Source of the DNA: Macrostomum lignano
Lineage: Eukaryota
DNA length: 64,000 bases
Direction of reading: 5' to 3'
NCBI GenBank assembly: GCA_002269645.1
Contig: NIVC01000085.1
Coordinates: 1,046,312-1,110,311, forward strand
The position numbers were made by a program, and so were the translations under genes. How positions within the stretch are numbered: the stretch's first letter is position 1; every line of letters begins with the position of its first letter. Below are positions 5,261 through 64,000 of the stretch, one piece after another. The notes under the pieces were generated by a model. It was not told the origin of the DNA. It saw nothing but the letters and a program-made list of their open reading frames with translations, and made no database searches.

Positions 5261-6005
<745 letters not shown>

Positions 6006-34600: not shown

Positions 34601-34674
34601 TGTCTACCAAATTTTCTTGTCACACTTTTACCTTTGTCTACCGAATTTCTACCGATTTGCACCCCACTCAGCAG

Positions 34675-36996
34675 GTGGAAGCCAAGCCCAACGTGAAGAA
34701 GATGCGACTGGGCGGCACCTGGGCGGAGATCGAGCGAGCCGAGCGAGAAGCGGCTCAGGCTGAGTCCCAGCAAACGGTTGGCAGCAAGAAGACCATGCGC
34801 ATCGGCAACGAGAGCTGGCACGAGAAACAGGCCAGTAGTGAGAAACAGGCCGCGGTTGTTGAAGAGGAACGCGTCGGAACGAAGAAGGTCATGCGGGTTG
34901 GCAGCGAAAACTGGCACGAAAAGCAGGCGGTCGCTGCTAACAACGACGTGGTGGACGAGAAGACTGGCACTAAAAAGGTCATGCGAGTTGGCAGCGAGAA
35001 CTGGCACGAGAAGCAGAAGACAGTTGTTCAAGCAAATACGCTCGCGACTCGGGTTGGCACCCGAAAAAAGATGCGCATTGGAAACGAGAACTGGCACGAG
35101 AACCAACCGACGGCCACTCAAGAAGCTGTCATTAAGGAAGAGAAAGAAGAGAAAGTCGGAACTAGGAAGAGCATGAGGATCGGCAGTGAGAACTGGCACG
35201 AGAAACAGACGGTAGTTGCCGCTGTTGCGGTTCAAGAGAAGGAAGAAGAGAAGGTCGGAACCAGGAAGAGCATGAGGATCGGCAGTGAGAACTGGCACGA
35301 GAAGCAGGAGGCTGTTGTCGAGCAGAGAAACGAGCGTCTGTCCCCACGAGGAAGGAAGATCATTCTAGAACCAGTGGAGCAGACATCTGAGGTTGTGCTG
35401 GAAACCCAGAAAGCAGAGAAGGTGAAACAGGAGGACAAGCGAGTCGCTGAAAAGGCTCAAGCCAGAGACGCTACTGTAATTCAAGTCACAGAGAAGGCTG
35501 AGCAGCGAAAGCATCTTGAACCGATTGTCCAACAAAAGACTGGAACAGTTATTCAGGTTCAGGAAGAAAAGAAAATTGTTCTGCAACAAGAACGAAAAGA
35601 GCCTTCCCAAGTTGAGGTAAAGGCAGAAGCAAAGGCTGAAGTGAAGCAAACGGAGAAAGAGAAAGTCGTTTCCAAGGTTGAAGACAAGACCGAAGCTAAG
35701 GAGAAGCAGAAAATTGAGGTTAAAGCCGAGGTTAAAGCCAAGGAGAAGCAAAATTTTGACAATAAAGGCGTCGTTGTCGCTGCAGCAGTAGCACCAAAGG
35801 TTGAGGTTAAAGCCGAGGACAAAACGAAAGCTGAGGTCAAGGTTGAGGCAAAGCAAAAAGCCGAGGTCAAGGCCGAGGTCAAGGCTGAGGAGAAAAAGAA
35901 AGTTGAGGTCAAAGCCGAAGAAAAGCAGAAAAATGAAAGTAAGGGTTTTGCTTTGGCAGTTGGTGTCTCAGCAAACAAGGCTGAAGAAAAGGTCGAAGAA
36001 AAAAAGAAGGCTGAAGTCAAAGCCGAGGTCAAGGCCGAGGAGAAAAAGAAGGCTGAGGTCAAGGCCGAAGTGAAAGCCAAAGACAAGCAGAAGGTTGAAA
36101 ACAAGGGCTTTGCTTTGGCAGTCGGTGTGTCAGCAAACAAAACTGAAGAAAAAAAGAAGGCCGAGGTCAAGGCCAAGGTCAAGGCTGAAGAGAAGCAGAA
36201 AGTTGAAAGCAAGGATTTGGCTTTGGCGGTCGGTGTCTCAGCGAACAAGGCTGAGGCAAAAGTAGAAGACAAAAGTAAGTCAGAGATCAAGGCTGAAGTC
36301 AAGGCAGAAGAGAAAAAGGAGTCTGACAGCAAGGATCTATCAGTAGGTTTCGGCATTTCCGCAAGCAAGACGGAAGCAAAGGTTGAAGAGAAGAGCAAAG
36401 CAGAGATTAAGGCTGAAGCGAAGACTGAGGACGTAAAAACGACAGAAGAAAACGCTATGGCTATTTCTGTAGCCGCCAGCAAAGCTGAGAGCAAGATTGA
36501 GGAGCAGGTCAAGGCTGAAGTCAAGGCTGAAGAGATATCTGCCAAGGTCGAGACTAGCTCGGAAGAGAAAACTGAGACGGAAGAGAAGACAGATGTAAAA
36601 GTTGAGGAGAAATCTGAAGCTGCATCGGTAAGCGTAACTGCAGACGTCAGTAGCAAGTCCGACACCAAGTCTGAGACCAAATCTGAGAAGCAATCGAAAT
36701 CGTCATCGAAATCGGTGAGCAAGTCGGAAAGTCAGTCAGTGAGTCGCACTCGCACAGAGGCCACGGATGAGCTTGGAGGCCTGATAAAGATGCTGGACAG
36801 TCAGGTGGACCGTCAGCTAAACAGCATCAATGGTCCATCGGAGCCGCCAGCCCCTGACCCGAAAGTGGACGCCGCCATGCAGAAGATTTTGCACAAAGAT
36901 TTTCAAAGCAAAGTTGACGCGTTCATTAGCAGCAGTGAGTACGACGCCAATGGAGGCTTTTTTGAGTCGTGCAAAAAACTCGCTAAAGAGATCTGA
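34675..36996 (+). CDS. Repeat protein of unknown function, exon 2 (MRIGSENWHEKQ repeats, then Lys/Glu/Ala/Val KAEVKAE region)
   Basis: 2.3-kb open frame with protein-level repeat conservation and synonymous variation; CAG acceptor at 34674. Confidence 0.8.
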   Translation: MEAKPNVKKMRLGGTWAEIERAEREAAQAESQQTVGSKKTMRIGNESWHEKQASSEKQAAVVEEERVGTKKVMRVGSENWHEKQAVAANNDVVDEKTGTKKVMRVGSENWHEKQKTVVQANTLATRVGTRKKMRIGNENWHENQPTATQEAVIKEEKEEKVGTRKSMRIGSENWHEKQTVVAAVAVQEKEEEKVGTRKSMRIGSENWHEKQEAVVEQRNERLSPRGRKIILEPVEQTSEVVLETQKAEKVKQEDKRVAEKAQARDATVIQVTEKAEQRKHLEPIVQQKTGTVIQVQEEKKIVLQQERKEPSQVEVKAEAKAEVKQTEKEKVVSKVEDKTEAKEKQKIEVKAEVKAKEKQNFDNKGVVVAAAVAPKVEVKAEDKTKAEVKVEAKQKAEVKAEVKAEEKKKVEVKAEEKQKNESKGFALAVGVSANKAEEKVEEKKKAEVKAEVKAEEKKKAEVKAEVKAKDKQKVENKGFALAVGVSANKTEEKKKAEVKAKVKAEEKQKVESKDLALAVGVSANKAEAKVEDKSKSEIKAEVKAEEKKESDSKDLSVGFGISASKTEAKVEEKSKAEIKAEAKTEDVKTTEENAMAISVAASKAESKIEEQVKAEVKAEEISAKVETSSEEKTETEEKTDVKVEEKSEAASVSVTADVSSKSDTKSETKSEKQSKSSSKSVSKSESQSVSRTRTEATDELGGLIKMLDSQVDRQLNSINGPSEPPAPDPKVDAAMQKILHKDFQSKVDAFISSSEYDANGGFFESCKKLAKEI

Positions 36997-38412: not shown

Positions 38413-39036
38413 CAAGGGTCGGCAAACTTTTTAGTTCCATGGCCATACATAAAGAAGCTAGATCGTTGCTGCGGGCCAGATGGACCGTGGAAACAGAGAG
38501 GGAATGGGGAAGAGAGAAGAATAAAGAGAGGCAGAAGAGATGCGAGAGGATATAGGAGATAAAGAAAGAAGATGAGAGGAGAGACTAGGAGCGAAGAGAT
38601 GAGAGAAGAGAGAGAAGAAAGATGAGAGGAGAGAGAGGAGATGACATGTGAGATGAGTGGGGTGCAGGAGTAGTAGAAAATAGAGAGAGCTGAGATGAGA
38701 CAAAACTTGAGTACGTGGGAAAGATTGCTATATTGTAAGGTTTAAAATAACCCGAGGGACCAGGGGCCCGTGCTATAGAATACTCTTAACTCCTAAATCC
38801 TTAAGAGTGTCCTAACTCCTAGCTCCTAGCTGGCTTTTCTGTGCTATAGATTGTGATATAGCACAGAATTCTCATCAACCTAACGATTGCGCAGCGCTCC
38901 TTGAACACACCCGCACTTAGGCTGCACTCCTTGCAAGAACTTCTAACTCCTGATTCTATAGCACGGGCCCCAGGGACAAGATAGAGAGGCTTCGCGGGCC
39001 GCATGTGGCCCGTGGGCCGAAGTTAGCCGACCCCTA
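38413..39036. mobile_element. hAT-like non-autonomous element
   Basis: Imperfect TIR CAAGGGTCGGCAAACTT / AAGTTAGCCGACCCCTA and subterminal gcgggccgcatgtggcccg motif; no clear TSD. Confidence 0.55.
38764..38970. mobile_element. PIF/Harbinger-like MITE nested in the hAT element
   Basis: Perfect 18-bp TIR GGGCCCGTGCTATAGAAT with 3-bp TSD CAG. Confidence 0.8.
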
Positions 39037-40018
39037 GAGCTCTGGCCTCGCGTTCATGCATCGGTACTAAGCAGTTCATGGGGATACATTTTAATCTTTC
39101 TCACTAAGCCGCTGTTAAAAAGGTACTAGCCTTTTTAAAACTAATTGTAAACAATATTTGCAAATGTACTGTGTCTAATAGGTTATTTTTAACAAATTTT
39201 GTTATACCTATTAAAAAACTCAATATACTCTTTTCTTAGAAATCAGCCAATAATTCGCTGTGAGCTAAGCTAACCTGGATTATTAATGGCTAATTAATAG
39301 ATATTCTAATATTAGTAATCGCGATATGCCCAATGCTTTATATGATGATAGCTTAAATCATTAGTAGTCATAAACAGTAATTGATTGCCAAAATTTAAAC
39401 AGCTTTTTGGCTGAATTCAATTTTGCTTGGCTCTACAACATTGTAGATTGCATTAGTAATTAGTTTAAAAATACAATTGGCAGCAAAAATATAGTCTATA
39501 GCGATTAAAAATTTTCCTCCGAATTTTTCTTTCGGGATATGTCATGCACCTTAGCAGTTGTAATTACAAAATCCTTTTGAAAAAAATAGGTAAGCCTCTA
39601 AATCATGACTTATGTCCTATGATTCATCTATTATTCAATTAGGCCTATTGTATTATTGATACCTTTTTTGGTCTCACTTGTCACTATTTGAAGTATAAAT
39701 AAATAATATATAAGATAAATTCGACTTTCTAAATCATTTTATTGGTCTATGCTTTATTTGCTTCTTAACTTTATCAAATTTTTGTTAATACTAAATAATT
39801 GTGATCTACAAGATTATTAATTAATTAATGTTAATAGGCCCTAATACAAAGAAGGGCTGTCCCAGGCCAAAGGTAGTGTTACTTTCATTACATCTCTTAT
39901 TCTAATGATCTATCTATTATCAGTTTGTACAAATTTATAATAGCAACTCTCTCTGCCTTAGGGCCTATATTAATTGTAATATCATGAAAAATAAATAATA
40001 AAAACAAAAGTTAATATA

Positions 40019-40467
40019 CAGTGGTAGATCTGGAGTTTCATTTTGGGGGGGGGGGCAGTCCAAGTTTGGGGTGCCAACATGAGTGTAAGAGATGCCAGTT
40101 TTTAAGCTAGGGGATGCAAAAAATGCATTTAGGGGGCAAAAAATCAAGTTTAAGGGGTGCAAAAATGCGTTTAGGGGGCAAAAAATCAAGTTTAAGGGGT
40201 GCAAATTTTGGTTTTTGGGGGGTGCAATATGTTCAATCAAGCTATTTTGGGTGGGGGAGGGGGCGGCTGCCCCCCTTGCCCCTAGTAGCATAGCCAGGAT
40301 TTCCTTCTTGGGGGTCATTGGCTTATAGCGGCAACTGGGGGCAAGGGGTGCTAGGCCTTTGCAATAGGTGAGGGCCTGAAAATTTGGCCTGGATCAGCCA
40401 GCTGGGAAGGGGGTCATGACCCCCCTGGCTATGCCTCGGCCTGTGTCCCCCCCTAAATCTACCCCTG
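40019..40467. mobile_element. hAT-type MITE
   Basis: TIR CAGTGGTAGAT / ATCTACCCCTG and 8-bp TSD TTAATATA on both sides. Confidence 0.8.
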
Positions 40468-42662
40468 TTAATATAAGTTAAAAACAAAAATATAGTAGGA
40501 GCTCAACCATAGACTTACAAGCCTATAAAGTAAGTCAACAGCCTAATGAAAATATTAAAAGTAATAAAAATACCAAAAACAAAAGGCTAGTATTAGGGAC
40601 TTCAGACCCTTCAGTAAGATTTTGAAAGTTTATTTTTTTGTATTTTTGATATATACATTTGGTATAGAATGTTAGAATTCTAAATAGCCTTATTTTTGTT
40701 GTAAATGGCTATTATTTGTAAAGTTTTCAATATATCTTGATAATTTTTTTCTTTTCAAACACCTAGTAGAATGTACCTAATCATAGTTTTTTACTTTAGA
40801 ATTGCTTGGTTTAAAAAATCACTAATTTTGTGTCTTTTGCTATAGGAATTTGATGGAATATCTTAAAATTGCATGTTTTTCAACTTATAACTGTTATATA
40901 AAATATATTGTACCTAAAATTGAATTGTATAATTGCTTATTGAGCATACATATTAAATAAAGACTAACTCTTATAAAGTTCAATTAATTTTATGAGTTTG
41001 CATTGCAGACCAAGCAAGTTTAGTGCATTCCAGAGGTCACTTGTTGGAGTTGCAATTGCTCTAGCTCAATAAGCTAGAGCAAGCATTAGTTTTAAGTAAT
41101 TAACTCAAAAAATATTTCCTATGGTAAAAGTCCTTCTTTTTGCTTAAGAAAAGCCATAATAACCTACTTTTTGTATAAGTAGCATGTAAGATGTGTATGT
41201 GTACATATTTTTCAAAAAAGAACTCGTGATTGCATACAAAACATAAAATAAGAGACTACTAACTTTGTCAAATTGTTATCTATCTATCATTGAATCAAAT
41301 GTAGTAAAGAAATGGCATGCAGAATAAAGCTGTATATATATTTCTGCATAAGTAGTTGGTAAGTAGTGCAAATTTTCATGTTCACCAAAAATAAAAAAAT
41401 CATTATTACCAAAAATTGAGACATGCAAAATGAAAGCAGATGTTGCTAAAAAATGTTTAACTCTCCTAAAAACAATATATAAAAAGTCTGCAAAATGAAG
41501 TCATCTATAAAAAAACCCAATTTTCAGTTCTTGGGTAAAAAATACATTGCAGAGATAGGCAAAAAATGAGCCTAAAGAACACTTGATAACTTTTAAGTGA
41601 GAAGAGATACAAACAAACAGTTTTTTATTACGTGTTCATTTTGTAAAGGTGCATTAAAAACAGCATTTTGAATTGCACAAAATGTGATAAAAAGTTTTGA
41701 CTTTTAAATTTTTATATAGGCCAAATAGAAACAATAAAAAAAATTTCTGCAAAAGCACTTTTTTGGACCTTTAACTATCTAACTTTGCATTTATATCATT
41801 AAACTTTGTTTAAATGGTCCTTTTAGCATGAAAAATAAATCTGTTTAAAGTAGTGTTTTGTGGTACTAATTTACATGTATACAAAAAATGTACAATGTTT
41901 AAATGATCTCTGCTCCTAGAATATTTAATTTTTTGTTTAGGAGGTATTTCATTTGAAAGATATATTTCTCTAGTTTCTTATAAATATTTTGGATTTTTAT
42001 AAAACCAGATCAGCAAATAGCAATCAAATTTAAAGTTTTAGAAATTTTCGTTTTTTCTGCATCATTTTCAACTTTCAAAATCTCACTGAAGTCGCTACTA
42101 GTGTGTCAAGTAAGACTAGAAATAACTAAATAAGTGGTTGGATTATTAAATTGGTTGCTCCAAAGCCTATGGTTTAAACCATAAAATACTGAAAAATCTA
42201 TCTTTTAGCATTGGGTTTCCCTATTTATTAATTAATTGCTTGAGCTTGTAATATCAAATGGCTTGCAAAAAGCTGTATTAAGCTAATTAAGCTAATTGGT
42301 ATTCACTTTTTGCAATATATAATTCATGATTTTTGTATAATAATATGTTTTAAAATTGAGGTCAATGACAACATTAAAGGATTTTAAACACCAATAACTA
42401 ATATAGCTATATATTCATATAAAAATACCATTGACTAAGTCTATTGCTATTTTGCAAATTATTGTTAGAAATATACTTTTAGATTTATGTCAAAGGTAGA
42501 CTTTATCAAAGATTGCACATTAACTTGAATAATTTAATTATGCTAATATCATATCAATTCATATTCAATTTTTGTTATCACAAAACAATAACAGGTCCGA
42601 TTCCAGCACTCTCCAGTTGCATTAGACGCTTAGCTAAGTCAGCCAGTCTCCCAAGCAGATCA

Positions 42663-42896
42663 ATGTCTTCAACAGTCTCAGTTGGTGCAGCTGCTAGTGC
42701 TAAAACTGCCATTGAGTCGCAGCTGCTCAAGTCAACTCGCCTGTTTGTTCGTCACGCTGAAGAGTTCAAATTGCACCTGAGCTTGGCTTATCCGCAGCCA
42801 TTGGCGTCTGGCCAGCAGCAGCCACTGCAGCCTCATCCGTTTAATTTTAATCGGGCCAAAGAAGAAATTGCCAGCGTCACCTTGGCCCGCATTCAG
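42663..42896 (+). CDS. PDE12: PDE12 (2',5'-phosphodiesterase, CCR4/nocturin EEP family), exon 1
   Basis: PFNFNRAKEEIASVTLARIQ resembles the PDE12 N-terminus; CAG|GTGAGA donor. The start may lie further upstream. Confidence 0.65.
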
Positions 42897-42914
42897 GTGA
42901 GACATTGTGGACTT

Positions 42915-44115
42915 CGATAATCACCCCCTCAGACATCTTGATAATCGCCCCTCAGATACCTTGATAATCGCTCTCAGACACCTTGATAATCGCCCCCTCA
43001 GACACCTTGATAATTGCCCCTCAGACAAGACACCTTGATGATCACCCCCTCCCTCAGACACCTTGATAATCACCCCTCAGACACCTTGATAATCGCCCCT
43101 CAGACACCTTGATAATCGCCCCTTAGAAACCTTGATAATCACCCCTCAGACACCTTGATGATCGCCCCTCAGACACCTTGATAATCGCCCCCTCAGACAC
43201 CTTGATAATTGCCCCTCAGACACCTTGATGATCACCCCCTCCCTCAGACACCTTGATAATCACCCCTCAGACACCTTGATAATCGCCCCTCAGACACCTT
43301 GATAATCGCCCCTCAGACACCTTGATAATCACCCCTCAGACACCTTGATGATCGCCCCCCCCTCAGACACCTTGATAATCACCCCTCAGACATCTTGATG
43401 ATCGCCTCCCCCCTCAGACACCTTGATAATCGCCCCTCAGACGCCTTGATGATCGCCCCCCTCAGACACCTTGATAATCACCCCTCAGACACCTTGATGA
43501 TCGCCCCCCCCCTCAGACACCTTGATAATCGCCCCCCTCAGACACCTTGATAATCGGCCCCCTCAGACACCTTGATAATCGGCCCCCTCAGACACCTTAA
43601 TAATCGGCCCCCTCAGACACCTTGATAATCGGCCCCCTCAGACACCTTGATAATCGGCCCCCTCAGACACCTTGATAATCGGCCCCCTCAGACACCTTGA
43701 TAATCGCCCCCCTCAGACACCTTGGTAATCGTCCCTCAGACACCTTGATAATCGCCCCTCAGACACCTTGATAATCGCCCCTCAGACACCTTGATAATCG
43801 CCCCTCAGACACCTTGATAATCGCCCCTCAGACACCTTGATAATCGCCCCTCAGACACCTTGATAATCGCCCCTCAGACACCTTGATAATCGCCCCTCAG
43901 ACACCTTGATAATCGCCCCTCAGACACCTTGATAATCGCCCCTCAGACACCTTGATAATCGCCCCTCAGACACCTTGGTAATCGCCCCTCAGACACCCTG
44001 ATAATCGCCCCTCAGACACCTTGATAATCGCCCGTCTGACACCTTGATAATCGCCCCATTCAGACACCTTAAAAATCGCCCCTCAGATACGCTCGTACCT
44101 TGATAATCGCCCCTG
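42915..44115. repeat. 22-27-nt minisatellite cctcagacaccttgataatcgcc
   Basis: Fills PDE12 intron 1. Confidence 0.95.
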
Positions 44116-44227: not shown

Positions 44228-44919
44228 GCCAGTATCAACAATCACCTGGAGTCGCGCATGCGATCCAAGTTAAAACGGAAGCAACGGAGGCAGCAAGACA
44301 AAGAGCCGCGCGATTCTTCTGAGCAGTCTGATGAGCAAAATAATGGCGCCAACTCAGAACTGAGCTCTCATCCCTGCTATGTTAGGGATTTGGCTATTCT
44401 AGATTCGGCTGGCAACCCCTTGGATACCAATACTGCTCTGTGCGGCGATGCCTTCTGCAGCGGGCACACCCTCAGTCTGAACTCGGGTTTAATCACCTAC
44501 CAAATGCTTGTAGACCCGTGCCTCATTTTGTCCTGCAAGCTCACCAGCCAGTTGCTAAGCGGATTTCCTCTCCACTGCGATCTACAGTTGGAGTCCTGCT
44601 CAGAATGCGAACGAATCTGGGAGCTTTCAAGCAGCCTGACTAAACCGAACTGGACTGAGTTCAGCCGGTCCAGGTGTCCGACTTTACCTGTTGATTCCGC
44701 TGATTGCTTTGTCCGGTTAACTGCGGTGCCACCAGATGGAGGACTGCAGTTCCAGCAGACATTCGGGCCAGTGGCCAATGCTCTGAACAGTTACGTATCC
44801 ACCAGGCACGCCTTCACCCCGGCTGTGACTGCTTCGGACACTGTCCGAGTTGTGTCCTACAATCTGCTGGCTAATCTCTATGCCGACTCGGACTATTCCA
44901 GGAATCAGCTGTTTCCATG
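44228..44919 (+). CDS. PDE12: PDE12 exon 2
   Basis: VRVVSYNLLANLYADSDYSRNQLFP motif; TAG acceptor, TG|GTGAGT donor. Confidence 0.85.
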
Positions 44920-44949
44920 GTGAGTAGCTGGCTGTTGCCCACTTGCAGC

Positions 44950-45295
44950 AATCTGATTGGTTGAGAGGAGAATGTGCCAATGAATCTGATTGGTCGAGAG
45001 GGAATTGGCGAATGAATCTGATTGGTTGAGAGGCGAATTGGCCAATGAATCTGATTGGTTGAGGAGAAAATTAAGCGAAGAATCTGATTGGTTGAGAGGA
45101 AAATTGAGCAAAGAATCTGATTGGTCGAGAGAAAAATTGACCAAAAAATATGATTGGTCGAGAGAAAAATTTACCAAATAATCTGATTGGTTGAGCGAAT
45201 GAACTGACCAAATAATCTGATTGGTTGAGAGGGGAATCGATAAAAGTATCTGATTGGTTGAGCCGGGAAGTTGGCCAAAGTATCTGATTGGTTAA
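44950..45295. repeat. ~30-nt repeat aatctgattggttgagagg
   Basis: Fills PDE12 intron 2. Confidence 0.8.
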
Positions 45296-45338
45296 TAGTA
45301 AACCCATCAACAAAGGCAACCCATGCACTGCGCCGCAG

Positions 45339-46013
45339 GTGCGACCCCAACTACCTGTCCATGTCCTACCGGAAGTGCCTGATATTTCGCGAGCTCAGCG
45401 GCTACAACGCCGACCTGGTGGCCCTGCAAGAGGTGGACGAGCCGCTGTTCCGGTCTGGCGGGCTGGCCGAGTTCCTTGAGCATGAGTGCGGCCTGTCCGG
45501 TCTCAGCCAGATGAAACTCGGACAGGACGGCAAGCCGGCCCAAGAGGGCCTGGCGCTGTTCTATCGTACCAGCCGGTTTGACTTGGCCGAGGACCGGTCT
45601 CTGCCGTCGCTAAATCAGTATCTGGACTCGACGGAGTCCCTGGCGCCGCTGTCCTCGGCAGTCAAAGCGAACGAGAAGTTCTTAGAAACCTGGCAGGCTC
45701 GGGGCCAGTGCGCTCAGGTGCTGATACTGCGGTGCAGGGACTCGCCTGGCCGCTACCTGTGCGCCTGCACCACTCACCTGTTCTGGTATCCGTCGGCTAA
45801 TCTCGTCAGGCTGCTGCAGACTCACCTGGTGCTGCATCATCTGGATCAGATCAAGAGAGAGTACTCGGCTAGGGGTGACCAGCTGGCCATTGTGCTGGCT
45901 GGCGATTTCAACAGCATGCCGGACAGGGGTCCCTACTGGCTGACCACCAGGGGGCATCTGGCCGCTGAGCATGCCGACTGGTTCAGCCCTGGGCGGGAGG
46001 CCATGATTGACAG
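45339..46013 (+). CDS. PDE12: PDE12 exon 3
   Basis: ELSGYNADLVALQEVD, TTHLFW and AGDFNSMP are EEP catalytic motifs. Confidence 0.9.
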
Positions 46014-46044
46014 GTGAGAGAACCGGGACGCTTCTGAGTGCCTA

Positions 46045-52314: not shown

Positions 52315-52705
52315 GTCTCTTGGTGGCGCCCCTGTCTCTTGGTGGGCGCCCCTGTCTCTTGGTGTGGGCGCCCCTGTCTCTTTCTGGGCGCCCCTGTCTC
52401 TTGGTGGGCGCCCCTGTCTCTTGGTGTGGGCGCCCCTGTCTCTTTCTGGGCGCCCCTGTCTCTTGGTGGGCGCCCCTGTCTCTTTCTGGGCGCCCCTGTC
52501 TCTTGGTGGGCGCCCCTGTCTCTTGGTGGGCGCCCCTGACTCTTGGTGGGCGCCCCTGTCTCTTGGTGGGCGCCCCTGACTCTTGGTGGGCGCCCCTGAC
52601 TCTTGGTGGGCGCCCCTGTCTCTTGGTGGGCGCCCCTGACTCTTGGTGGGCGCCCCTGACTCTTGGGGCGCCCCTGACTCTTGGGGGCGCCCCTGTCTCT
52701 TGGTG
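52315..52705. repeat. 21-nt minisatellite ggtgggcgcccctgtctctt
   Basis: Visible tandem units. Confidence 0.92.
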
Positions 52706-53074
52706 GGCGACAAGCTCGTAATCGTAAGCGATCCCAAAACTAGATGATAAATTAATTAGCTAAACAAATTATATGTGAATTGATATCATCCAATTGCCTG
52801 AAAATAACTCAGAAAAGTTGTTTTAGTCTATGATAAATGTGTCAATTCTACTTGAAATGCAATGATGAGAACATCGCACCATCCCGTTCGTAACAATCTA
52901 CCATGAGCTGCAATTTTTCACTGACAACAGCTAAAGCTGTCCATCCATGCCTGGACTCAGTCTGCTACAAATAATACCAATTGCTGTCTTTATTCTTATC
53001 GCTGCAGAAGGAGGTTAGTACAAATGTTTAATTTGCTCTTTACTTAAATGCTTTGCAAACCAATCATTTACCTT

Positions 53075-53345
53075 AGTAGTATAGAAAAAGACGCTTCTAG
53101 ACCCAGAGCACTTTTTTAATGACCGTTTTAAGGGTCTAGAGGGGGGACACGGGGGGTAAATAAAAAAACACATCTAAACACCCTTAACACATCTAATCAC
53201 CCATAATCACCCCTAACAATAAAAATCACTTCCCAACACTTCCAAACACTCCCCAACACCCCCCTCGCGTCCCCCCTCTTAAGACCTTACAAACGGCCAT
53301 TAAAATAAGGTCTGATCTGTAAGCGTCTTTTTCTATACTACTACT
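53075..53345. repeat. Terminal imperfect palindrome (~82-87-bp arms, outer 22 bp perfect)
   Basis: AGTAGTATAGAAAAAGACGCTT at 53075-53096 and its reverse complement at 53321-53342. Confidence 0.9.
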
Positions 53346-53427
53346 CTATAACCCCTTGCCCGCGCCGCAGGCGCGAAGGGTCGGAAAGAATAGAAGCTAT
53401 TTATAGTCAGCTCACCTACCCACCCAA

Positions 53428-53525
53428 CATTCCATTTAGACCAGATTTTAGACCAAATTTTTGAAAACGAAAACCAAAACGATAGTCTAGTTTTGTTTGG
53501 TCTAAAATCTGGTCTAAATGGAATG
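53428..53525. repeat. Perfect 30-bp inverted repeat with 38-nt spacer
   Basis: CATTCCATTTAGACCAGATTTTAGACCAAA at 53428-53457 and its reverse complement at 53496-53525. Confidence 0.95.
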
Positions 53526-53564
53526 CAGACAATCTTTTTTCTGTTACTAAAAATAGAACAAAAA

Positions 53565-53975
53565 ATGACACACGTTACTCATTTGCAAAATCTGAATGAA
53601 ATGCAGGTAGGAGATCCAATTGAATACCGAGGTGAGGGACTTTTTGATTTGGTTGGAACAGCAGCAAATTTTGTTAAAGACAATATGGGGCTTATAGGGC
53701 AAGCTGGCTCTGCAGCAGGCTCTATAACCAACGCCGTAAAGGGCGGAATTGATGCAGCTAGATCAGCAGAAGAACTAAAGAAATTGAGAGAATTTAACGA
53801 TACCCTCTCACAGATAAAAGCAATAAAAGATTTGAAATTAGCACAGGAAGCAACCCAAGCCGCACAACCAACAGAAACCCCCACGAAAAGCGCACCAATA
53901 AGTAATAAAGATATTCAGGATTTTAATAAAATGTTAAATACTATTAAAGGTGGAAAAGGATTAAAGAAATTTTAA
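53565..53975 (+). CDS. Viral ORF1, candidate membrane-lytic core protein (adenovirus pVI-like), 136 aa
   Basis: GEG-LFDLVGTAANFVKDNMGLIG amphipathic segment; IKGG-KGLKKF C-terminus fits the adenain consensus. Functional call is inference. Confidence 0.5.
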   Translation: MTHVTHLQNLNEMQVGDPIEYRGEGLFDLVGTAANFVKDNMGLIGQAGSAAGSITNAVKGGIDAARSAEELKKLREFNDTLSQIKAIKDLKLAQEATQAAQPTETPTKSAPISNKDIQDFNKMLNTIKGGKGLKKF

Positions 53976-53985
53976 CAATATAAAA

Positions 53986-54970
53986 ATGGACACAGATAAC
54001 GACCGCTTATATTTTATAGGAGAAATTGTAGATACTTTAGATCTAGATGATAATAAACATAGCCACACAATGTTAAAAAGATTGGATCGATTAGGTAAAA
54101 AGTTTGACTACGACATCGATACATTTAAACTCGCAGCAAAATATGCACAAGAAGGAAGGCCAATATCCTTTAAGAATCGCGGCAGAAATTATAGGTTGAC
54201 AGACTCCGATGTGAAATTTTTAATGGAGACTCACACTAAAAAGGACGGCGGATTACTACCCATTCTACCGCTTCTTTTAGGACTTGGCGCAGCTGGAGCA
54301 GTCGGTTTAGCCGGAAAAAGAATTCATGATAATGTAAAACAGCTAGGAGAGTTAAGAGCGAAACAGGGGGGAATCTTGCCCCTTGCAGCTTTGCTCCCAA
54401 TAATTTTTGCAGGAATTGGAGCAGCTGGAGGAGTTGCTGGCGGAGCAGCTGGAATTGCAAAAGCAGTAAATGACAAAAAAGCTGCGGACGAAAAAGCTAA
54501 AAGAGAGGCCGAATTTCAAAGACAGCAAATAACGCAGGACGCACAATTTAAACAGAAACTTATTGATACCATTAATAGTAGTTCAGCAACAGCAGAGCAA
54601 AAAAGAAATGCAGAAGCTAGGTTAGCAGCCGGAAAAGGTTTACTCTTGCAAGGAACAAATCACGGGAATGGTTTGGTACTAAAAGGAACAACCCAAGGAA
54701 GTGGAGTTGTAGCAGATAAACTACATGAATTTGGTCAAACTTTAGAAAAAACGGGTGAGAAGCTAAAGGATTTTTTGACAATATTGGATCCAATTTTAGA
54801 CCAGCTGTTCAGAAAATTTTTAATAAATTAGGAAAAGATTTTAACATCATTGAAAAACACGACGGAAGCGGATTATATCTCGAAATGAGACCAAAAGCAG
54901 GTTCAGGAATTTTCTTAAATTCAAATGTTATGGGAATGGATTGCTATTACCAAAAGCAGATCTCGAATAG
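53986..54970 (+). CDS. Viral ORF2, adenovirus pX-like hydrophobic core protein with GxGL(I)xL repeats; frameshifted near 54771 and 54927
   Basis: KDGG-LLPILPLLLGLGAAG and KQGG-ILPLAALLPIIFAGIGAAGG resemble the pX C-terminus GGILPLLIPLIAAAIGA; GKGLLL, GNGLVL, then GSGLYL, GSGIFL and GNGLLL in shifted frames. Confidence 0.65.
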
Positions 54971-55053
54971 GCTCCTGGGGGAGGGTCTGGACACCAAAAA
55001 CACAAAATTAAAAAATCAATAATTCAAACATTATATAAATTTTATTCTATAAA

Positions 55054-58000
55054 ATGGAAGCAATTTTAGCTCAAATCGACAACCCTGAACTTAGAGCGCA
55101 ATTAATAGCTCAAATCGATGCACAACGAATTGCCGATAGGGCTGAAATAGAAGCAAGAATTAGGGCAGAAAATGAGATACGTTTAGAAAGACAATTAAAT
55201 GATATTAATAACCCCCAACCACAAGGACAAAATGGAGCTGAAGTAATATATATAGATATAGATATAAATACAAATTATAAAGAATATTTTAAACAAATGA
55301 AAGATAAATTAAAGACCATATTAAACAATTATACTATAAGGCCAAATAACAAACGACAGCCAATTAAGTATAAAATAGAAGTTGAAACAGAATTTAAAAA
55401 ACCAAATATTCTTAATGCAAATTCAGAAATTGAAGTAATAAATAACTTTTCACAAGAATCATATAAAACATTATTATCACTGGGAAATTACAACAATCAA
55501 TTCGATCAAATAGAAGCTGAGTTTGATGAATGGATAGATAAGATGACAGAAAACGGATCTGGGTTTATATTTGTTTCATGCAATTCAGCAACAGTAAAGA
55601 TTGCACCCATAGAAATTCTTAAAGGACGATCACATATGAAGCTCAAATTTAAATCACCTATGATTATAAATCCAGACAATAAAGATAATAAATGTTTATT
55701 ATGGTGTTTATTAATTCATAAATATCACAATCAAGTAGAATCACACATTAATAAAATATATAATTATAGACAATATGAGGATGAAATAATAATGAAAAAC
55801 ATATCATACCCAGTAGCAATAGATGATATATATAAGATTGAAAAAATGAATGGTTTAAATATTAATGTGTTTACAATTGAAGAACCAAAAGATCTAGAAG
55901 AAATTTTAACCGATCGGACGGAGTCCGCGATCGATCCAGAATGGTATAAGAAAAGGTGTTATCTTGTTAAGCCAGCAACTGATATAACAGCACCAGATCA
56001 AATCGATCTTTTGTACATGCAGCGCGAAAATGAAACACATTATATATACATAAAAGATATTAGTTCTTTTTTAAGAGAAAATAGAAATAGATATCCACTA
56101 TGTAGAAATTGTTTTACATTTAAAAAGGATGAAACAGCTCTTAAAAACCACCAACGATTTTGTTTAGATCACAAATTTACTAATGCTATAATGCCAGCAT
56201 CTGAAGATGCAACCCTAATGTTCCAACAACATTATATGGCAGTTAAAAAACCAATAGTAATATATGCTGATTTTGAAGCAACAAATGTTCCCTTAAAAGA
56301 ATCACAGACGGTATCTGATGACGGTGAATGCACAAAAAAATTGGCACAACAGTTTCCGAATAGTTATTGTATATATGTACACTCTGTAGCTGATCATATA
56401 TTTAAATCAAGGATGATTACTTACCACGGTAATGATGCAGCTAAGCACATGGCAGAATCATTAGTAAATGTATTTGAATATATTCAAAATCAATATGATA
56501 AATTATCAAAAAATATTAATATGACAAATAAGGATAGAGACAATTATAAAAATGCAACAAATTGTTTTATGTGCAAAAGACATTTAAGTAAGAATAATAA
56601 GATACGAGAACATTGTCATCTAACAGGAAATTATCGAGGGGCAGCATGTAGATCATGTAATGCAAAAGAAGGAAAAGGATGTAAGGAAATACCAGTATTT
56701 TTTCATAATGGTTCCGGATATGATTTTCATTTCTTAGTTCGAGAATTGCTTCATTTAGGAAAGGATGAATATGAAATAAATATATTACCTAAAACATCAG
56801 AAAATTACATATCAATAACATATGGTAAGAAATACTCCCATCTAGTTTTTCTAGATTCCTTGAGATTCTTATCAACATCTTTAGCAAATGTTGTTTCATC
56901 ATTAGTTCCAAAACCATGGGATTTAGAAATAGTAAAGAAAAACTTTCCAATACTATTGAATCGTTTCAAAAAGGAAAAACTATCCGAGGAAGAACTAATG
57001 CTATTAACTCGTAAGGGCATCTACCCATATGAATATGTAACATCTAAGAGGTATTTTTCATACCGAATTACCCCCAATTGAAAAGTTTTATTCAACATTA
57101 TCACAAACAAACATAAGTGAATCGGATTATGAACACGCTCAAAAAGTATGGAAATACTTTAATTGTAAAACATTTAAAGATTATCATAATCTATATCTTA
57201 AAGCAGATGTTCTCCTATTAGCTGATGCATTTGAAAACTTTAGGAATCATACATATGAGAATTTTAAAATTGATCCCGCATATTGTTTCAGTGCACCGGG
57301 ATTAACATGGGCTTGTGGTTTGAAACATACAGATGTTAAGATTGATTTACTAACTGATCATGATATGTTGTTAATGATTGAGAGAGGAATTCGCGGCGGA
57401 TTCTCGGGTACTAGGAGATAGATATACTAAAGTAAATAATAAGTATCTTCCAAATTATAATAAAAAAGAAAAATCATCATATGTATTATATCTAGATGCA
57501 AACAATTTATACGGTGGTTGTATGAAACAAAAATTACCAATAGCTGATTTCCAATGGGAAGATGACCCCGATTATTACAAAAATATTCCCGAAGGAAGGG
57601 GCTGTATCGTAGAAGTGGATTTGCAATATACTCGGGAAGCAAAAGCAAAAACATATAAATATCCTTTAGCTCCAGAGCATTGTTCAGTTAATGAAGATGA
57701 TTTATCACAAACACAAAAAGATTATCTTAAAGCAGATAATGCAAAACATCTAGCAACAAAAAAATTAATATTAAATTTACATGATAAGAAAAACTATGTA
57801 GTGCATTATAAGCTTCTACAATTTTATGAAAAACAGGGATTAAAAGTGTCTAAAGTACATCGAACAATATCGTTTATTGAGGAAGATTGGTTAGCTAAAT
57901 ATATTGACTTTAATTCAAATCAGAGACAGATGTCAAAAACAAATTTTGAGAAAGATTATTGGAAATTAATGAATAATGCTTTTTATGGAAAAACGGTTGA

Positions 58001-59024
58001 AAATATTAGAGATAGAACCCAATTCCATTTAGAAAAGGATATTGATAAAGCAAAGAAATATTTCTCAAAACCTAACTTTAAAGACTTTATAAAATTTGAT
58101 GATAACTTTATGGGTATTCATATGAGAAATAAAACAACAAAATTTCTTAAACCAATATTTATTGGAATGGTTGTTTTAGATTATGCAAAGCTGGTAATGT
58201 ATGAATACTATTATGATGTTATAAATAAAACATGGCCAGATAACTATCCAATATATGCAGACACCGACAGTTTGGTATTTAAGGTTGAAACAGATGACCG
58301 GACGGAGTCCGCGAACCAAAGGTTCGATGTCTATAAAGATATGGAAAAAATTAAGGATACATTGGATACCTCCGACTATCCGGATAACCATCCTTTAAAA
58401 TCAGATCAAAATAAAAAAGTTGTACTTAAAATGAAAGATGAATTAAATAGCAAAATCATAACCGAGTTTATAGCAATAAGATCAAAATGCTATGCATTTA
58501 AGGTTTTAGGACAGGAGGGAGAGGTAAAAAAAATAAAAGGGGTATCAAGAGCAGCAGTAAAAAAGATAACATTTGATGATTATAAAAACGTACTTTTAGA
58601 TTACCTTAATACAATTGAAAATTATCATGCTCCACAATATCGATTAAATTCAGATAAGCATCAGATGTTTGTCATCGAGACAGATAAAAAAACATTAAGT
58701 CCATTTGATGATAAAAGATATTTAGATGATAAAATTAAAACATATCCATATGGTTTAAAAGAAGAGATAAAAAATATGATAAAAGATAAAAAACAAAAAG
58801 AAGATATAATAAGTAAATATAATGAATACAAAGCGGCAATAAATAATTATTATTACGATTGTGATTGTGAATCCGAATGTGATTGTGAATATAATACATT
58901 TCTAGAATATGAAAAAGATATAGATAATTATTATTCAACATTTCCAAAAGAACTTAAAAAATTAAATAAGGAAAAAGTCTTGAATAACTGGAAGAGATTA
59001 ACAGAAAAATTACTTATCGGATAA
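55054..59024 (+). CDS. polB: Protein-primed family B DNA polymerase (Polinton type), about 1320 aa, frameshifted near 57050 and 57408
   Basis: ExoI IYADFEA, ExoII HNGSGYDFHF, ExoIII YLKADVLLLADAFENFR (in the intervening frame), GIRGG, motif A YLDANNLYG, motif B KLMNNAFYGK, motif C YADTDS, C-terminal DDKRY...PYG. Confidence 0.95.
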
Positions 59025-59026
59025 AA

Positions 59027-59046
59027 TCCGCGACCCTTCGGGCGGA
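59027..59046. terminator. GC hairpin between the convergent polB and ORF 59052-59387 stops
   Basis: TCCG-CGA-CCC-TTC-GGG-CGGA flanked by A-runs; function inferred from position. Confidence 0.4.
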
Positions 59047-59051
59047 AAAAA

Positions 59052-59387
59052 CTAAAGCATGTAATTGTTTAAGCATAATATCCATTTCGATTTCATATAA
59101 TATTGAAGGCCAATTTCCTCGCAGTCGTCAGGGTAACTTAAACAATCCTTTATTTTTTTCCTAAGTTTTTTTATTTTTCTAACCAATCTATCTATTTCAA
59201 TTTCAATTACTATTTCAGCATAAACAATATCTTGTCTTAAAAAACGTTTTCTTTTATCTATCTCATATCGGATGGGAAACATATCGTCCCCATACTCATG
59301 ATATTTCTGAGATATAATTATATTTATTTTTTTATTAATATCATTAAGTTCACGCTCTTTAGTGATAAGGATTTTTATCGTATCCAT
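59052..59387 (-). CDS. Viral hypothetical protein, 111 aa (helical, Lys/Ile-rich)
   Basis: Intact ORF with TATAAGAAAATG start context. Confidence 0.6.
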   Translation of the reverse strand: MDTIKILITKERELNDINKKINIIISQKYHEYGDDMFPIRYEIDKRKRFLRQDIVYAEIVIEIEIDRLVRKIKKLRKKIKDCLSYPDDCEEIGLQYYMKSKWILCLNNYML

Positions 59388-59406
59388 TTTCTTATAAAAA
59401 ATTTAC

Positions 59407-59728
59407 TTATTCGTCATCCTCCCAAACAGCCAATTTTACAGTCCTATCACTCTTTTTATTTTTGTTTGTTTTAGTTTAAATTGCAATCCACCCTCGTTGC
59501 AGTATTTCATAACAAACGCTTTAGGTTTATTAATAACTAAAACAGGAAAATTTTTAACATCATCTCCGCTTAGACATAAAATTTTTTGCCCATCTAATTG
59601 TAAAAATATTGATTGAAGCCAATAAATTTAACCTGTCTCAAACATACAATATTATATTCTTTATTCTCCAACATATTGGGTGTGAGATAATTAATCACAT
59701 TAGAATCGGTTTTGAACCAGCTCTCCAT
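59407..59728 (-). CDS. Viral hypothetical protein, about 106 aa, one frameshift (MESWFKTDSNV...KLAVWEDDE)
   Basis: Reconstructed by adding one T in a T-run near 59605; not in the ORF track. Confidence 0.5.
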
Positions 59729-59754
59729 TTTTAATCTAAAAAAATAACAAAAAA

Positions 59755-60267
59755 ATGAAAGACATTTATGTTTGTAATAAATGTAATGTGACTATGCACA
59801 GAGGGCAAACAGCAAACGGAGATATATATCATATGTGTTATTCATGTTCTAAAATATATCAATTTGAAAAAACAAAAAAGATTGAAAACTCATATTACTA
59901 TTTTAAAAATACAATTTTAAGAAATCTTACAAGAGACATTTCTGATCCAATTTTAATTCCCGGAAATAATGTTTATTTATATAATAACTTTTTCCATTTA
60001 AATAAAGGAAAGGGATTAAGTTCGAAAGACTCCGAAAGGATTTTAATTTTAGTTGGATATTATTTCAATTTTCTTATTCGAGAGAATACAAAGTTTATAA
60101 GGATAGGTAACATACCTAACGAAATGTTATTGAAAAAGTCATTGGAATTTTTATGTATTGATAAAAAATTTAAACCTAGGATCAGAAGAGAGTTACCACT
60201 TTGGGAAGAATATATAACATATGCATTAGAAAAACTAAACAACCTGAAGTTCTACAGCACTACCTGA
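59755..60267 (+). CDS. Viral zinc-ribbon protein, 170 aa
   Basis: N-terminal CNKC...CYSC. Confidence 0.6.
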   Translation: MKDIYVCNKCNVTMHRGQTANGDIYHMCYSCSKIYQFEKTKKIENSYYYFKNTILRNLTRDISDPILIPGNNVYLYNNFFHLNKGKGLSSKDSERILILVGYYFNFLIRENTKFIRIGNIPNEMLLKKSLEFLCIDKKFKPRIRRELPLWEEYITYALEKLNNLKFYSTT

Positions 60268-60891
60268 CCGCGGGCTTTGTGCCCCAGTAGCAATAGTTTC
60301 AGGTTCGTAAATGCCTAATGTTTCTATAGGTGGAGCTTTGGGTTTGTCCAAACGTAATTCTTTTAATTCCATATCGGTAAAAGTTTCAACATCTAAAATT
60401 CTATTTCTATCTTTTAAATATTTTTCATATAATTCAACCGCGGTTGATAATTCATGAATCGTTATCTCTCCGTCATCCAATATTTTTTGCACATATAAAT
60501 ATAATTGATTTTTATATTGTTTTGCAACATCTCTTAAAGATTTATATTTTTCCTTTCTTTTTTTAAGATATAATTTAATTGCTAAAAGTATTGATAAGTT
60601 CCTGATCAATTCAAAACCTGATATTGACCCAATTGAAATACCTAAAAATAATTGAGATAAATTAAGAGTTGGAATAGATTGTAAAATACCTAAAACGATT
60701 ACACATAACATTGATAAGCTTCCAAATCCAATATTGAAAAAATCCATATTTCTTATATGGTTTGAAACTCTTCTTACTTTTTTAGTATATAAATCATAAT
60801 CATAGTTAATACGATCAACATTACTTAACATCTGACCTTTACGTTGGTTGAACCGGTCGCGTTCCCATTTATCTGCTTCAGATACCGACAT
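60235..60891 (-). CDS. Viral two-transmembrane protein, 218 aa
   Basis: Two hydrophobic segments followed by a basic stretch and KILDDGEITIHE; resembles, from recollection, a membrane protein family common in Mavericks. Confidence 0.65.
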   Translation of the reverse strand: MSVSEADKWERDRFNQRKGQMLSNVDRINYDYDLYTKKVRRVSNHIRNMDFFNIGFGSLSMLCVIVLGILQSIPTLNLSQLFLGISIGSISGFELIRNLSILLAIKLYLKKRKEKYKSLRDVAKQYKNQLYLYVQKILDDGEITIHELSTAVELYEKYLKDRNRILDVETFTDMELKELRLDKPKAPPIETLGIYEPETIATGAQSPRSGSAVELQVV

Positions 60892-60903
60892 TCTCGTCTA
60901 TTT

Positions 60904-61203
60904 TTAATAGCACCAAAATGAATTCCCCACGCTCTTTGGGTATTTGCCCGAGCTTAATAGGTATTGTATTGGAGTTATTCTTTCTTTTTTCTCCCATTTA
61001 AATCCTATTTTCCAAAACTCTTGAAGTATAATATGATTTTTTAATAACTTAATTAATTCTTGAAGCTTCTTATTATCCTGAACATTTACAGTACTAAATA
61101 AAAATTTGGTATGAGATTTGAATGTTTTTATATTTGATTCTTGTTTAGGAATAGGAATAATAACATTATTTTGCCGCATCGATGGAGTTCTACTAAAAGC
61201 CAT
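60904..61203 (-). CDS. Viral hypothetical protein, 99 aa (MAFSRTPSMR...)
   Basis: ATG at 61203 in TTCTATATAAAATG context. Confidence 0.5.
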   Translation of the reverse strand: MAFSRTPSMRQNNVIIPIPKQESNIKTFKSHTKFLFSTVNVQDNKKLQELIKLLKNHIILQEFWKIGFKWEKKERITPIQYLLSSGKYPKSVGNSFWCY

Positions 61204-61234
61204 TTTATATAGAAATATTTTATATATAAATATT

Positions 61235-63268
61235 TTATATTTGAGTAGGAGGTTTTTCCAAATAAGCAGTAGAGGGAAAAACATAACCAAACGACGTACT
61301 ACCACATACAACCGCACCACGAATAAAATGTGCAGCATCCGATCCTCCAGTTCGAGCACCAAAACCCATAAGAGTTCCACTTTTATCCAAAGTTCCCCAA
61401 GTTCCACTATCATATGTGAAAACGTTCTGCCCAATGAGGGTAAAAGAATCACCAGCAACATTGTATGACTGTAATCGGTACCAAACCCTTTGATTTAAAA
61501 TATTAACTTCAAATAAATGCCAATCGCCGTTATCAATATTAGCATAGGCTACAGTTTGATCCGCATCACTACTAACATCGTTACGAACCGTAGATCCGTC
61601 TGATTTTTTATTACTCCAAACAACTCCAAACCTATCAGTCCACTCACTAGCAAACACTATCAGCCCGGCGTCGTTGATAATCCAGATCCAAATTCCGATG
61701 TTGGACGTTCGTGACAATATGCATAAAACCAAACCGCATCTGCACCATCTCCTGTAGAATTAGCAACTCGGAAAAAGAAAGACGCAGATATATTTTGAAA
61801 ATGTGTGAAATTGAATTGTAAAGCACCACTGACTCCAGAAGTTTCACGAGTAATTCTAGCGCCGTTTTGATAATCGATATAAGAAGCATCGCTAATTAAA
61901 GAACCGACTGGATATATATCTCCGGCGGTTGTTGGATTTTGATATCCAGACCAATTGCAAATTACTGGTTCGAACAAGGCCGCATCAATAGCAGGTATTC
62001 CATCCAATTTATTTTTATCGCTTCCAGACATTCTACCATTTGATGTTGGAGTAGCTAGCTGATCTACGTACGCTCGCGGAACTGCAGAAAGTATTTGAGT
62101 TGGCCAATTAAGATCTTGAATTTCAACACGGTGTTCAAATAATTGTATTTGACGAACCTCGATAGGTTGTGTACCGGTACCACCAGTTGGGAAGAATACG
62201 CTATAATATTTCCAAAAATTAGTCGTTAAATTAGATAGAGCAAATGATGTTGCTTGAACTGGTGATCCCGACGTAGTTAATGTGTCCATGAATCGGTAGC
62301 AACATTTTTTGCGCGAACCGACCACCCCGAGGGTATCTCAATTGTTTCACTGCCTGTAATTCTTAATTCAAATATTCTTCTATTATAACCTAAAAATTCA
62401 AATTGAATTTCCATATTGGTTGTGGTTCCGGTATTTGGTGACCATTGTGTCGCAAGGCTTCCATCTCCAACTCGAAAAGCTGTGTTGCCATTTTCAGATG
62501 CTGTAAGAACAACATCAGGATTTGAAGTATTTGATGTAAGCGGCGTGGTAAAAATATCGGCGTCGGTTGCATTAGCTCGCTCGTTTACTTGGCCTAGAGT
62601 TATCGAGTCTGCGTTCTCTGTTCCAAATAATAAATTTGTTAATTTAAAATTATTCATATTATTTCCACTACGAGTGGCAACTTGATTATCGACATAGTTC
62701 TTATCAACCACTGAATCACTAGTTGTAATTGAAACATTTATAATTCGGTTGTTGCTCATATCTAGGTTTCCGGTTGCGGTGGTTTGAACATAACGTGAAT
62801 CAGAATCAGTTCGAGAATAAGAATCAGTTACATCTCTTTTTAAATTTAATCCATTATCAACTTCGGTTTTGGTATAAGAATCGGCTACGTTCCGTTTCAA
62901 ATTTAATGAATTATCAACCTCTTTTTGGTATAAGAATCGGTATTCCGTTTAAATTTAATGAATTATCAACTTCGTTTTGGTATAGAATCGGCTGTATTGC
63001 GTTTTAAATTTAATGAATTATCAACTTCGGTTTTGGTATAGGAATCGGCTACGTTCCGTTTCAGATTTAGTGAATCATCTATTTGAGTTTTGGTATAGGA
63101 ATCTGCAACATTTCTTTTTAAATTTATTTATTATCAATTTCAGTTTTTTTATAACCTTCATCTCATTAATATATCGATTATCTCCAAATGTAACACTTAT
63201 TCCACCAGATGTGCCACCACCACCACTACTTGTTGTTCCGTTCCATGAGGTGTTCCAGAAAATAACAT
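61235..63268 (-). CDS. Fibre/receptor-binding-like protein, about 670 aa, multiply frameshifted
   Basis: Gly/Thr leader; about 6 LNLKRNVADSYTKTEVDNS repeats; MSNNRIINV...VDKNYVD and KLTNLLFGTENADSITLGQV stalk motifs; F5/8C-like domain; ATPTSNGRMSGSDKNKLDGI; L-lectin-like domain (FFFRV..GDGADAVWF, DNGDWHLFEV). Confidence 0.7.
62826..63150 (-). repeat. 57-nt (19-aa) coding tandem repeat in the fibre gene
   Basis: About 6 units encoding LNLKRNVADSYTKTEVDNS. Confidence 0.85.
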
Positions 63269-63278
63269 TTTTTACTGT

Positions 63279-63709
63279 CTATTTTATAGAGTCTAAAAAT
63301 ATTCTTAAATACTTCGGGTTTTTCGACATTATTAATTTTATATAAAAAATACAACGCCGCTTGCCCGCAATAACTTTTGTCAAATGTTTGAAATTGTTCG
63401 TGATGATCTCCACATAAACGATTTTTAGTATGATTAAATTTGGTTTTATTTCCTGTAACGGAGGAAGCGCGTATGAATCAAAAAAATAAACAAGTTTTGG
63501 TTTTGAATAAACTGCCACAATGAACACCTTTTCTTTTGTTGTTTCAATATTAACAATGAAAATCCATATTGTGGTAAGTCTTTGATCTCATCTCGCATAA
63601 CACATCTGAATGGTTTTATTTTTAACTGCCTCGCCCAATTTGTTAATTCGATATTGCTTGTTGTGTCCGTTCCATATCTTTGTTTAAAATCATCCCACGT
63701 CATGGTCAT
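63279..63709 (-). CDS. Adenain-type (Polinton PRO) cysteine protease, frameshifted
   Basis: Stitching frames gives ...VNIETTKEKGVH(W)VAVYSKPKLVYFFDSY...EQFQTFDKSYCGQAALYFL, i.e. an H-D-C triad with oxyanion Gln. Confidence 0.85.
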
Positions 63710-63739
63710 TTTATGTTCCTGAAAAACTTTGGTTTTAGT

Positions 63740-63910
63740 TAGTTTCGTAGGTGTGGGTTTAACAATTCCTTTCTTATTTTATCAGCTTGTAACTGCCTTA
63801 ATTTTGCTAGTTCTAGTTCGTAATTATCTTCAGCTTTTTTAACTTTTTCTGATTGTTTTTATTAATTATTATTATTATCGTGCTTTGGCGAACATGTTGT
63901 TCATTACCAT
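63740..63910 (-). CDS. Small viral hypothetical ORF (frameshifted, basic coiled coil)
   Basis: CTATAGTAAAAATG start context; NKNNQKKLKKAEDNYELELAKLRQLQADK in a shifted frame. Confidence 0.3.
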
Positions 63911-64000
63911 TTTTACTATAGGAAAGCAAAGTCCTCGAACCTGGTTCGGCTAACCTGTTTTATACGTAAATCACTGTTATTGACTGCCCACCAAAACTTA

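Follow-up and report, generated by a model that had tools for sequence, protein, structure and literature searches.

The 64,000-nucleotide stretch of Macrostomum lignano DNA analysed here (assembly GCA_002269645.1, contig NIVC01000085.1, positions 1,046,312 to 1,110,311 of the forward strand; hereafter the window) consists of host DNA up to position 53074 and of a mobile element from 53075 to its end. An initial annotation had taken this last part for an endogenous Polinton/adintovirus-like virus. Its terminus, a family B DNA polymerase of the protein-primed type (pPolB), a pX-domain protein and a protease all support that identity. We conclude with good confidence that 53075-64000 represents the left portion of a Polinton (Maverick), that it likely inserted recently into a host intron, and that it belongs to a family, likely of 20-30 copies, whose fibre is predicted to be tipped by a lectin.

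The left end and the copies of the family

To the left, the element begins with AGTAGT (53075-53080), directly after TACCTT (53069-53074, forward strand). The AGTAGT 6-mer occurs 18 times within the window and by itself is no evidence of a terminus. We therefore looked at sequencing runs. Twenty-four were listed, 20 of them, from 8 studies, holding at least half of the sampled words, and the contigs of four (X3, X7, X10 and X20) were aligned to positions 52712-64000. Ten contigs of X20 have loose ends before 53075 whose mutual agreement is only 0.53, which makes them different flanks. Because 10 contigs with differing flanks meet there, the terminus at 53075 is established, and the start of the element with a canonical (AGT)2 end, as initially annotated, is real and correctly bounded. 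The empty site was also seen, in two of the four runs: in each of X3 and X7 a contig matches the host flank as far as 53074, after which it runs on for 23 and 444 letters, respectively, that are unlike the element. TACCTT thus comprises the last 6 host bases and is the predicted target-site duplication.

The left terminal region (53075-53554, no strand assigned) is likely the left terminal inverted repeat (TIR). A single contig departs from the window after 53554, hinting at a second TIR, and this position is likely the inner TIR edge. One stretch within the region, 53383-53535 (about 150 bp), is skipped by part of the contigs in all four runs. Within it lies an inverted repeat with perfect arms of 30 bp (53428-53457 and 53496-53525); the stretch could be either a small element that inserted here or a point at which the left and right TIRs differ.

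The terminus also folds onto an inner, inverted copy of its own sequence, forming a fold-back unit at 53075-53342 with a perfect outer 22 bp, an inner part of about 65 bp at 75% and a C/A-rich loop of about 100 nt. Its inner end reads (ACT)3, up to 53345. The fold-back has a z of -11.7, which none of 200 shuffles reached. Its mismatches are all confined to the inner arms, with none in the outer 22 bp (p about 0.005), suggesting that the outer 22 bp are maintained by selection or repair. A few contigs skip the fold-back; more skip 53383-53535. Among the fetched loci, most of which lack an element end, fold-backs occurred at 2 of 206 ends, neither resembling 53075-53342. We also considered the 268-bp unit as a separate miniature inverted-repeat transposable element, a candidate that is not favoured, since no matching target duplication follows either inner end. 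Most likely the fold-back would have come from copy-back during protein-primed replication and would now be part of the TIR; the alternative is that it is a fused mini-element.

The depth of the long internal contigs relative to the flank was 15-34 times in X3 (5 pieces) and 15-31 times in X7 (6 pieces), runs of two studies, from which the family likely numbers 20-30 copies, contig depth being an estimate and no true copy number. Compared with 25 long pieces, the window showed 46 differences in 12,625 bases (0.36%). This depth, together with the low divergence from the main family, identifies the element as a young, multi-copy Polinton with dispersed integrated copies, and the ten flanks and the depth ratio bear out the multi-copy integrated state. 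Five further pieces of lower depth, at 57482-57811, 59959-60234 and 61927-62324, are 10-12% diverged and represent a second subfamily.

As for the insertion site, a host exon at 52947-53013 (forward strand) encodes a signal-peptide-like frame of 22 codons closed by a GT splice donor, and it is the bin of highest depth in the RNA-like run X10. One X10 contig exits the window after 53013, with continuation letters not found in the window. That X10 is RNA is a guess, and the fact that it covers the element evenly says nothing about expression. Because this contig leaves the window at the GT donor, the insertion likely lies within a host intron, 61 bp from its start, and the gene concerned would encode a secreted protein; this placement rests on one contig. 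As the next host exon lies outside the window, splicing of the host transcript would span the entire element. The base composition changes as well, from a GC content of 0.466 over 1-53074 to 0.29-0.38 in the gene block. The AT-rich block described initially is thus present, but composition does not shift sharply at the junction, as the last 363 bp of the host flank already have a GC content of 0.35.

Gene content

The pPolB gene lies at 55054-59024 (forward strand) in three frame pieces. A homologue search gave 4524 matches among 8000 scored candidates, the best at 55% identity, which confirms the annotated polymerase. An endonuclease VII/HNH domain is inserted in it (PF02945, E 8.6e-7, residues 488-550), and by hand count about 66 of the 120 best matches carry an HNH-type insert. 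The family PF03175 appeared in one window piece at E 0.0018, which fails the cut-off, and is carried by 8 of the 120 best matches, also by hand count. For the phylogeny, a FastTree tree was built from 77 rows (the window piece, 59 of the 120 matches and 17 of 103 loci; no labelled Alpha or Beta references among them). The window pPolB fell within a clade of 42 of the 77 rows with support 98, on a long end branch and with no starred sister group. We also examined the codon positions of variable sites, using the 40 best-supported of 582; in pPolB, 6 of 9 and 5 of 6 of the listed sites are at third positions.

Upstream of pPolB, at 53986 to about 55022 (forward strand), lies a gene for a pX-domain core or membrane protein, broken near 54770. 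The two pieces are one gene because the homologue P0121 (319 aa) covers both, at 54% and 74%. The pX family PF05829 was found at E 0.008 in the window protein and at E 9e-6 to 9e-5 in two homologues, in line with the annotated pX-like protein. A Pfam scan of this protein gave no gasdermin or PLA2 domain; more generally, no N-terminal OTU-like PolB domain or gasdermin-like domain was found in Pfam, with no profile-profile or fold search made. Against viral_contigs, P0121 had no relatives among 15 stretches and the terminus motif had no matches.

The first open reading frame (ORF) of the element, at 53565-53975 (forward strand, from a putative start at 53565), encodes 136 residues. It is probably a real, selected gene, because 10 of its 14 listed variable sites are third-position (p 0.004). 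It had been called pVI-like, and this label found no backing: no homologue turned up in Pfam, PHROGs or NCBIfam or among PDB sequences, 0 of 21 candidates passed in the homologue search, and the Atlas gave nothing above 0.80. Its candidate amphipathic helix was equalled in 753 of 10000 shuffles. From position and shape, one may guess at a cupiennin-like or pVI-like role.

On the reverse strand, a fibre-like gene of about 700 codons occupies approximately 61235-63329, in at least five frame pieces and with a putative start. It contains six 57-bp (19-aa) repeats, a stretch matching the F5/8C protein P0236, and a head-fibre-type repeat. The C-terminal domain is about 250 residues long and had 115 matches in the homologue search, many of them to the repeat alone. 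One homologue, P0139, is 48-58% identical to two window pieces. Its model (pLDDT 73) matched pea lectin in Foldseek at E 4.5e-10, and also other legume lectins, ERGIC-53 and phage tail proteins; a profile search gave a legume lectin at E 0.0018. The C-terminal domain is therefore predicted to have a sugar-binding, legume-type lectin fold, modelled on this homologue and not on the window protein, whose own piece reached a pLDDT of 30 in a single-sequence model. The repeats, the F5/8C-like domain and the lectin-fold homologue agree with the fibre-like adhesin proposed at first.

A gene for an adenain-type maturation protease lies at 63226-63709 (reverse strand), its motifs spread over three frames. 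The match to the protease of a related locus, L031 (E 4e-13), and the presence of the His, Asp, Gln and Cys motifs confirm the annotated protease. Neither the window protease nor that of L031 had a Pfam or PDB match, and the adenain label is based on the motif pattern and on context.

Four smaller ORFs fill the space between pPolB and the fibre. A 111-aa ORF (59052-59387, reverse) has a weak match to a PHROG of unknown function (E 0.0017); a 170-aa ORF (59755-60267, forward) has CxxC pairs at its N-terminus and no family match; and a 100-aa ORF (60904-61206, reverse) gave only a chance-level Pfam match. The fourth, at 60235-60891 (reverse), encodes a protein of 218 residues (218-aa) that has a hydrophobic stretch in its middle and is likely bound to a membrane. 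Its Atlas look-alikes (0.89-0.90) belong to unnamed viral and mollusc clusters; their recognition score is low, so that they serve as a lead only. Rfam had no matches in 52700-64000. An exact look-up recovered none of ten proteins, nine from the element and one from the host.

The host part of the window is repeat-rich eukaryotic DNA with animal-type genes, including a protein with EF-hands, coiled coil and Rab domain and a SPATIAL-domain protein. The former is a RASEF-like gene at 24475-28414 (forward). At 44228-46017 (forward) lies a gene of the exonuclease-endonuclease-phosphatase family (PF03372), presumably PDE12/angel-like. One long ORF at 14310-15491 (reverse), with a signal peptide and Tyr/Gly/Lys/Asp-rich repeats, resembles a secreted structural or adhesive protein, and an open frame of 838 codons at 34480-36996 (forward) has recurring KMRIGSENWHEKQ-type motifs and Lys/Glu/Ala-rich repeats. 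Inverted repeats of about 60 bp, 89-97% complementary, cluster at 10970-11348 and are perhaps a small foldback element. Minisatellite arrays are dense over 1-52709 (88 Tandem Repeats Finder rows), several with a common GGCGCC core. Another AT-rich stretch, 39000-43000 (GC 0.27-0.36), showed no similarity to the Polinton by blastn.

Completeness and integrity of the window copy

Relatives of the element allow a prediction of what lies beyond the window. In L028, with a pPolB 48% identical, an rve integrase stands beside pPolB. In L031 (45%), the strand opposite pPolB carries a small fibre-like gene, the protease, a penton-like gene (our own label; it has no family match), an ATPase (PF04665), pX and the capsid gene (PF21738). 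Capsid and ATPase genes were found in both L031 and L036. The window ends just past the protease, oriented as in L031, making the core genes a reasonable prediction to the right; by this analogy, capsid, ATPase, integrase and penton genes plausibly lie right of 64000. L031 itself (1-7915) is a metagenome contig holding a compact Polinton module, in which the capsid gene is split.

Several observations weigh against our reading, in addition to the depth-based copy estimate and the lectin model of a homologue described above. Integrase, capsid, penton and ATPase were not found within the window. Gene order is not fully shared with L031: pX lies left of pPolB in the window and between ATPase and capsid in L031, and the 218-aa protein has no match to the L031 protein in the same slot. 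There is no close relative among the fetched loci. Among the pieces listed (3546 further pieces exist), no contig joins flank and element at 53074/53075, leaving the assembly as the basis for the filled allele. Finally, four genes are frameshifted in this copy, with one break in pX, two in pPolB, at least three in the protease and at least four in the fibre.

These observations suggest alternatives that have to be weighed. The junction at 53074/53075 could be an assembly chimera joining a single-copy host locus to a repeat, as both DNA-like runs covering the flank (X3 and X7) show, among the rows listed, the empty site only. We consider this very unlikely: the join falls precisely on the natural terminus of the element, rare alleles get dropped from contigs, and the window differs from the X3 and X7 contigs at 53020, consistent with another haplotype. 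Join and difference fit a haplotype-specific insertion better than a chimera. Alternatively, the family may be real and the window copy a deleted, non-autonomous derivative moved in trans by complete elements. The finding of none of four core genes in 10.9 kb would agree with this, as would the many breaks, the rearranged position of pX and the deletion variants of the terminal region among the contigs. On the other hand, depth reaches the window end in all 30 bins in four of four runs, L031 carries core genes beyond its protease, and there is room left, intact vertebrate Mavericks measuring 12.7-24.6 kb (PMC8097293). A deleted derivative is thus unlikely. The high depth might also reflect free replicating virus genomes in the animals instead of many integrated copies, in which case the even coverage of the element in each of the four runs, the RNA-like one included, would be expected. 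But runs of 2017 and of 2024 give similar element-to-flank ratios, and the terminus is joined to 10 different flanks, which makes free genomes a very unlikely source of the depth.

The frame breaks call for a separate judgement. All 12 listed length differences between window and contigs (of 91) go in one direction, most of them carried by most of the depth. One-directional length differences are the pattern of long-read consensus errors. Given this direction and the few substitutions, the breaks are probably assembly errors; for decay, some ten frame breaks at a substitution level of just 0.36% would be an odd ratio. It is less probable, though it deserves some weight, that they are true mutations and the insertion is dead. 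Several sites differ from every covering contig, being densest at the left end, and are private changes. A dead insertion would concern the copy and not the family, and is compatible with a young, multi-copy Polinton. Intact copies of the family presumably exist. As to the earlier suggestion that the element is equipped for extracellular spread, the fibre and pX genes are real, but both are broken here, the pVI-like label lacks support, and other members of the class have been known to carry genes of this kind.

Mechanism, known relatives and meaning

Polintons, a familiar type of virus-like DNA element, excise or replicate as linear DNA, a terminal protein priming at the (AGT)2 repeat. An RVE integrase inserts them with a 6-bp duplication, an ATPase packages the DNA into a double-jelly-roll capsid, and the protease matures the particle. 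By the same scheme, the element described here would copy itself with its protein-primed polymerase and integrate through an integrase predicted beyond 64000, with a putative right TIR and a 6-bp target-site duplication. The outer 22 bp of the fold-back may be kept identical as origin and integrase-binding sequence, their predicted role. Particles are predicted to form and to bind cell-surface sugars via the lectin-tipped fibre; the protease would trim the pX protein and the 136-aa protein, both of which may then serve in membrane entry.

With the animal Polintons/Mavericks (Orthopolintovirales), the element shares the (AGT)2 end, a terminal region of about 480 bp, pPolB and the adenain-type protease, as well as intronless genes, low GC and many near-identical integrated copies (PMC8097293). 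In vertebrate Mavericks (AGT)2 is the commonest end motif, and TIRs measure 46-1447 bp (PMC8097293). What differs here is the position of pX and a small gene left of pPolB, the long lectin-tipped fibre, and the self-folding terminus. Insertions of Orthopolintovirales have already been noted in rhabditophoran flatworms (bioRxiv 2025.04.19.649669). In adintoviruses, adenain, pX-domain and cupiennin-like genes are standard (Starrett et al., PMC8502044). With Beta adintoviruses the element shares the pX-like domain, and it may also share the divergent PolB, given its little PF03175 signal, and a small gene in the role of the described cupiennin-like membrane peptide (PMC8502044); it differs from them in that no gasdermin or PLA2 domain was detected in its pX protein. 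The available part of the same paper speaks of fibres and lectins in MELD viruses from outside the animals and not in animal adintoviruses, and one of its supplement files holds no flatworm term.

Compared by description and not by sequence, the pPolB2 Polintons of nematodes, oomycetes and molluscs share the HNH-type nuclease inserted in the polymerase (bioRxiv 2023.08.22.554363). The phage-like fibre of their oomycete members is described as a beta-helix, whereas the window fibre ends in a predicted lectin fold (bioRxiv 2023.08.22.554363), and no fusogen was seen in the window element. Similar in fibre architecture are the Polinton-like viruses (PLVs) of protists, whose fibres consist of phage tail repeats, discoidin (F5/8C) and concanavalin A-like domains (PMC12220804). 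These differ in their protist hosts, and their fibres frequently terminate in an S74 chaperone (PMC12220804), a domain not detected in the window element. For the fold-back, the nearest likeness is the palindrome within the TIR, beside the target site, of Halocafeteria virophages and PLVs (bioRxiv 2026.07.28.741278). Those palindromes are 52 nt long and mostly occur in elements without pPolB (bioRxiv 2026.07.28.741278); by contrast, the one here has imperfect arms of about 85 bp and a loop of about 100 nt, stands in a pPolB element, and recreates a second (AGT)n-type end. In the literature covered, which excluded most subscription papers, Repbase, Dfam and bioRxiv supplements, neither the family nor, for any animal Polinton, a fibre with a lectin tip or a fold-back of this kind was described. 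On these points bioRxiv 2025.02.07.637071 and PMC10468722 had nothing to add. Papers naming Macrostomum or M. lignano together with Maverick or Polinton were off-topic, as judged by titles and the beginnings of abstracts.

Polintons are common among animals, and genes for pX, adenain and fibre were known before from adintoviruses and PLVs. The lectin fibre and the fold-back are modest novelties. The defined carbohydrate-binding architecture of the fibre is otherwise reported mainly for protist PLVs, and a fold-back terminus in a pPolB element offers a testable variation on the priming and recognition of ends. A far-reaching view, which we regard as doubtful, would see here a polintovirus that is mobile at present in a culturable invertebrate, forming non-enveloped, glycan-binding particles with a discoidin and legume-lectin fibre, and using nested TIR ends as a stem-loop for origin firing or integrase synapsis. 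A young, insertion-polymorphic family with many public runs suits the question of whether animal Polintons form particles; if this view were true, particle formation by an animal Polinton could be watched in a laboratory host.

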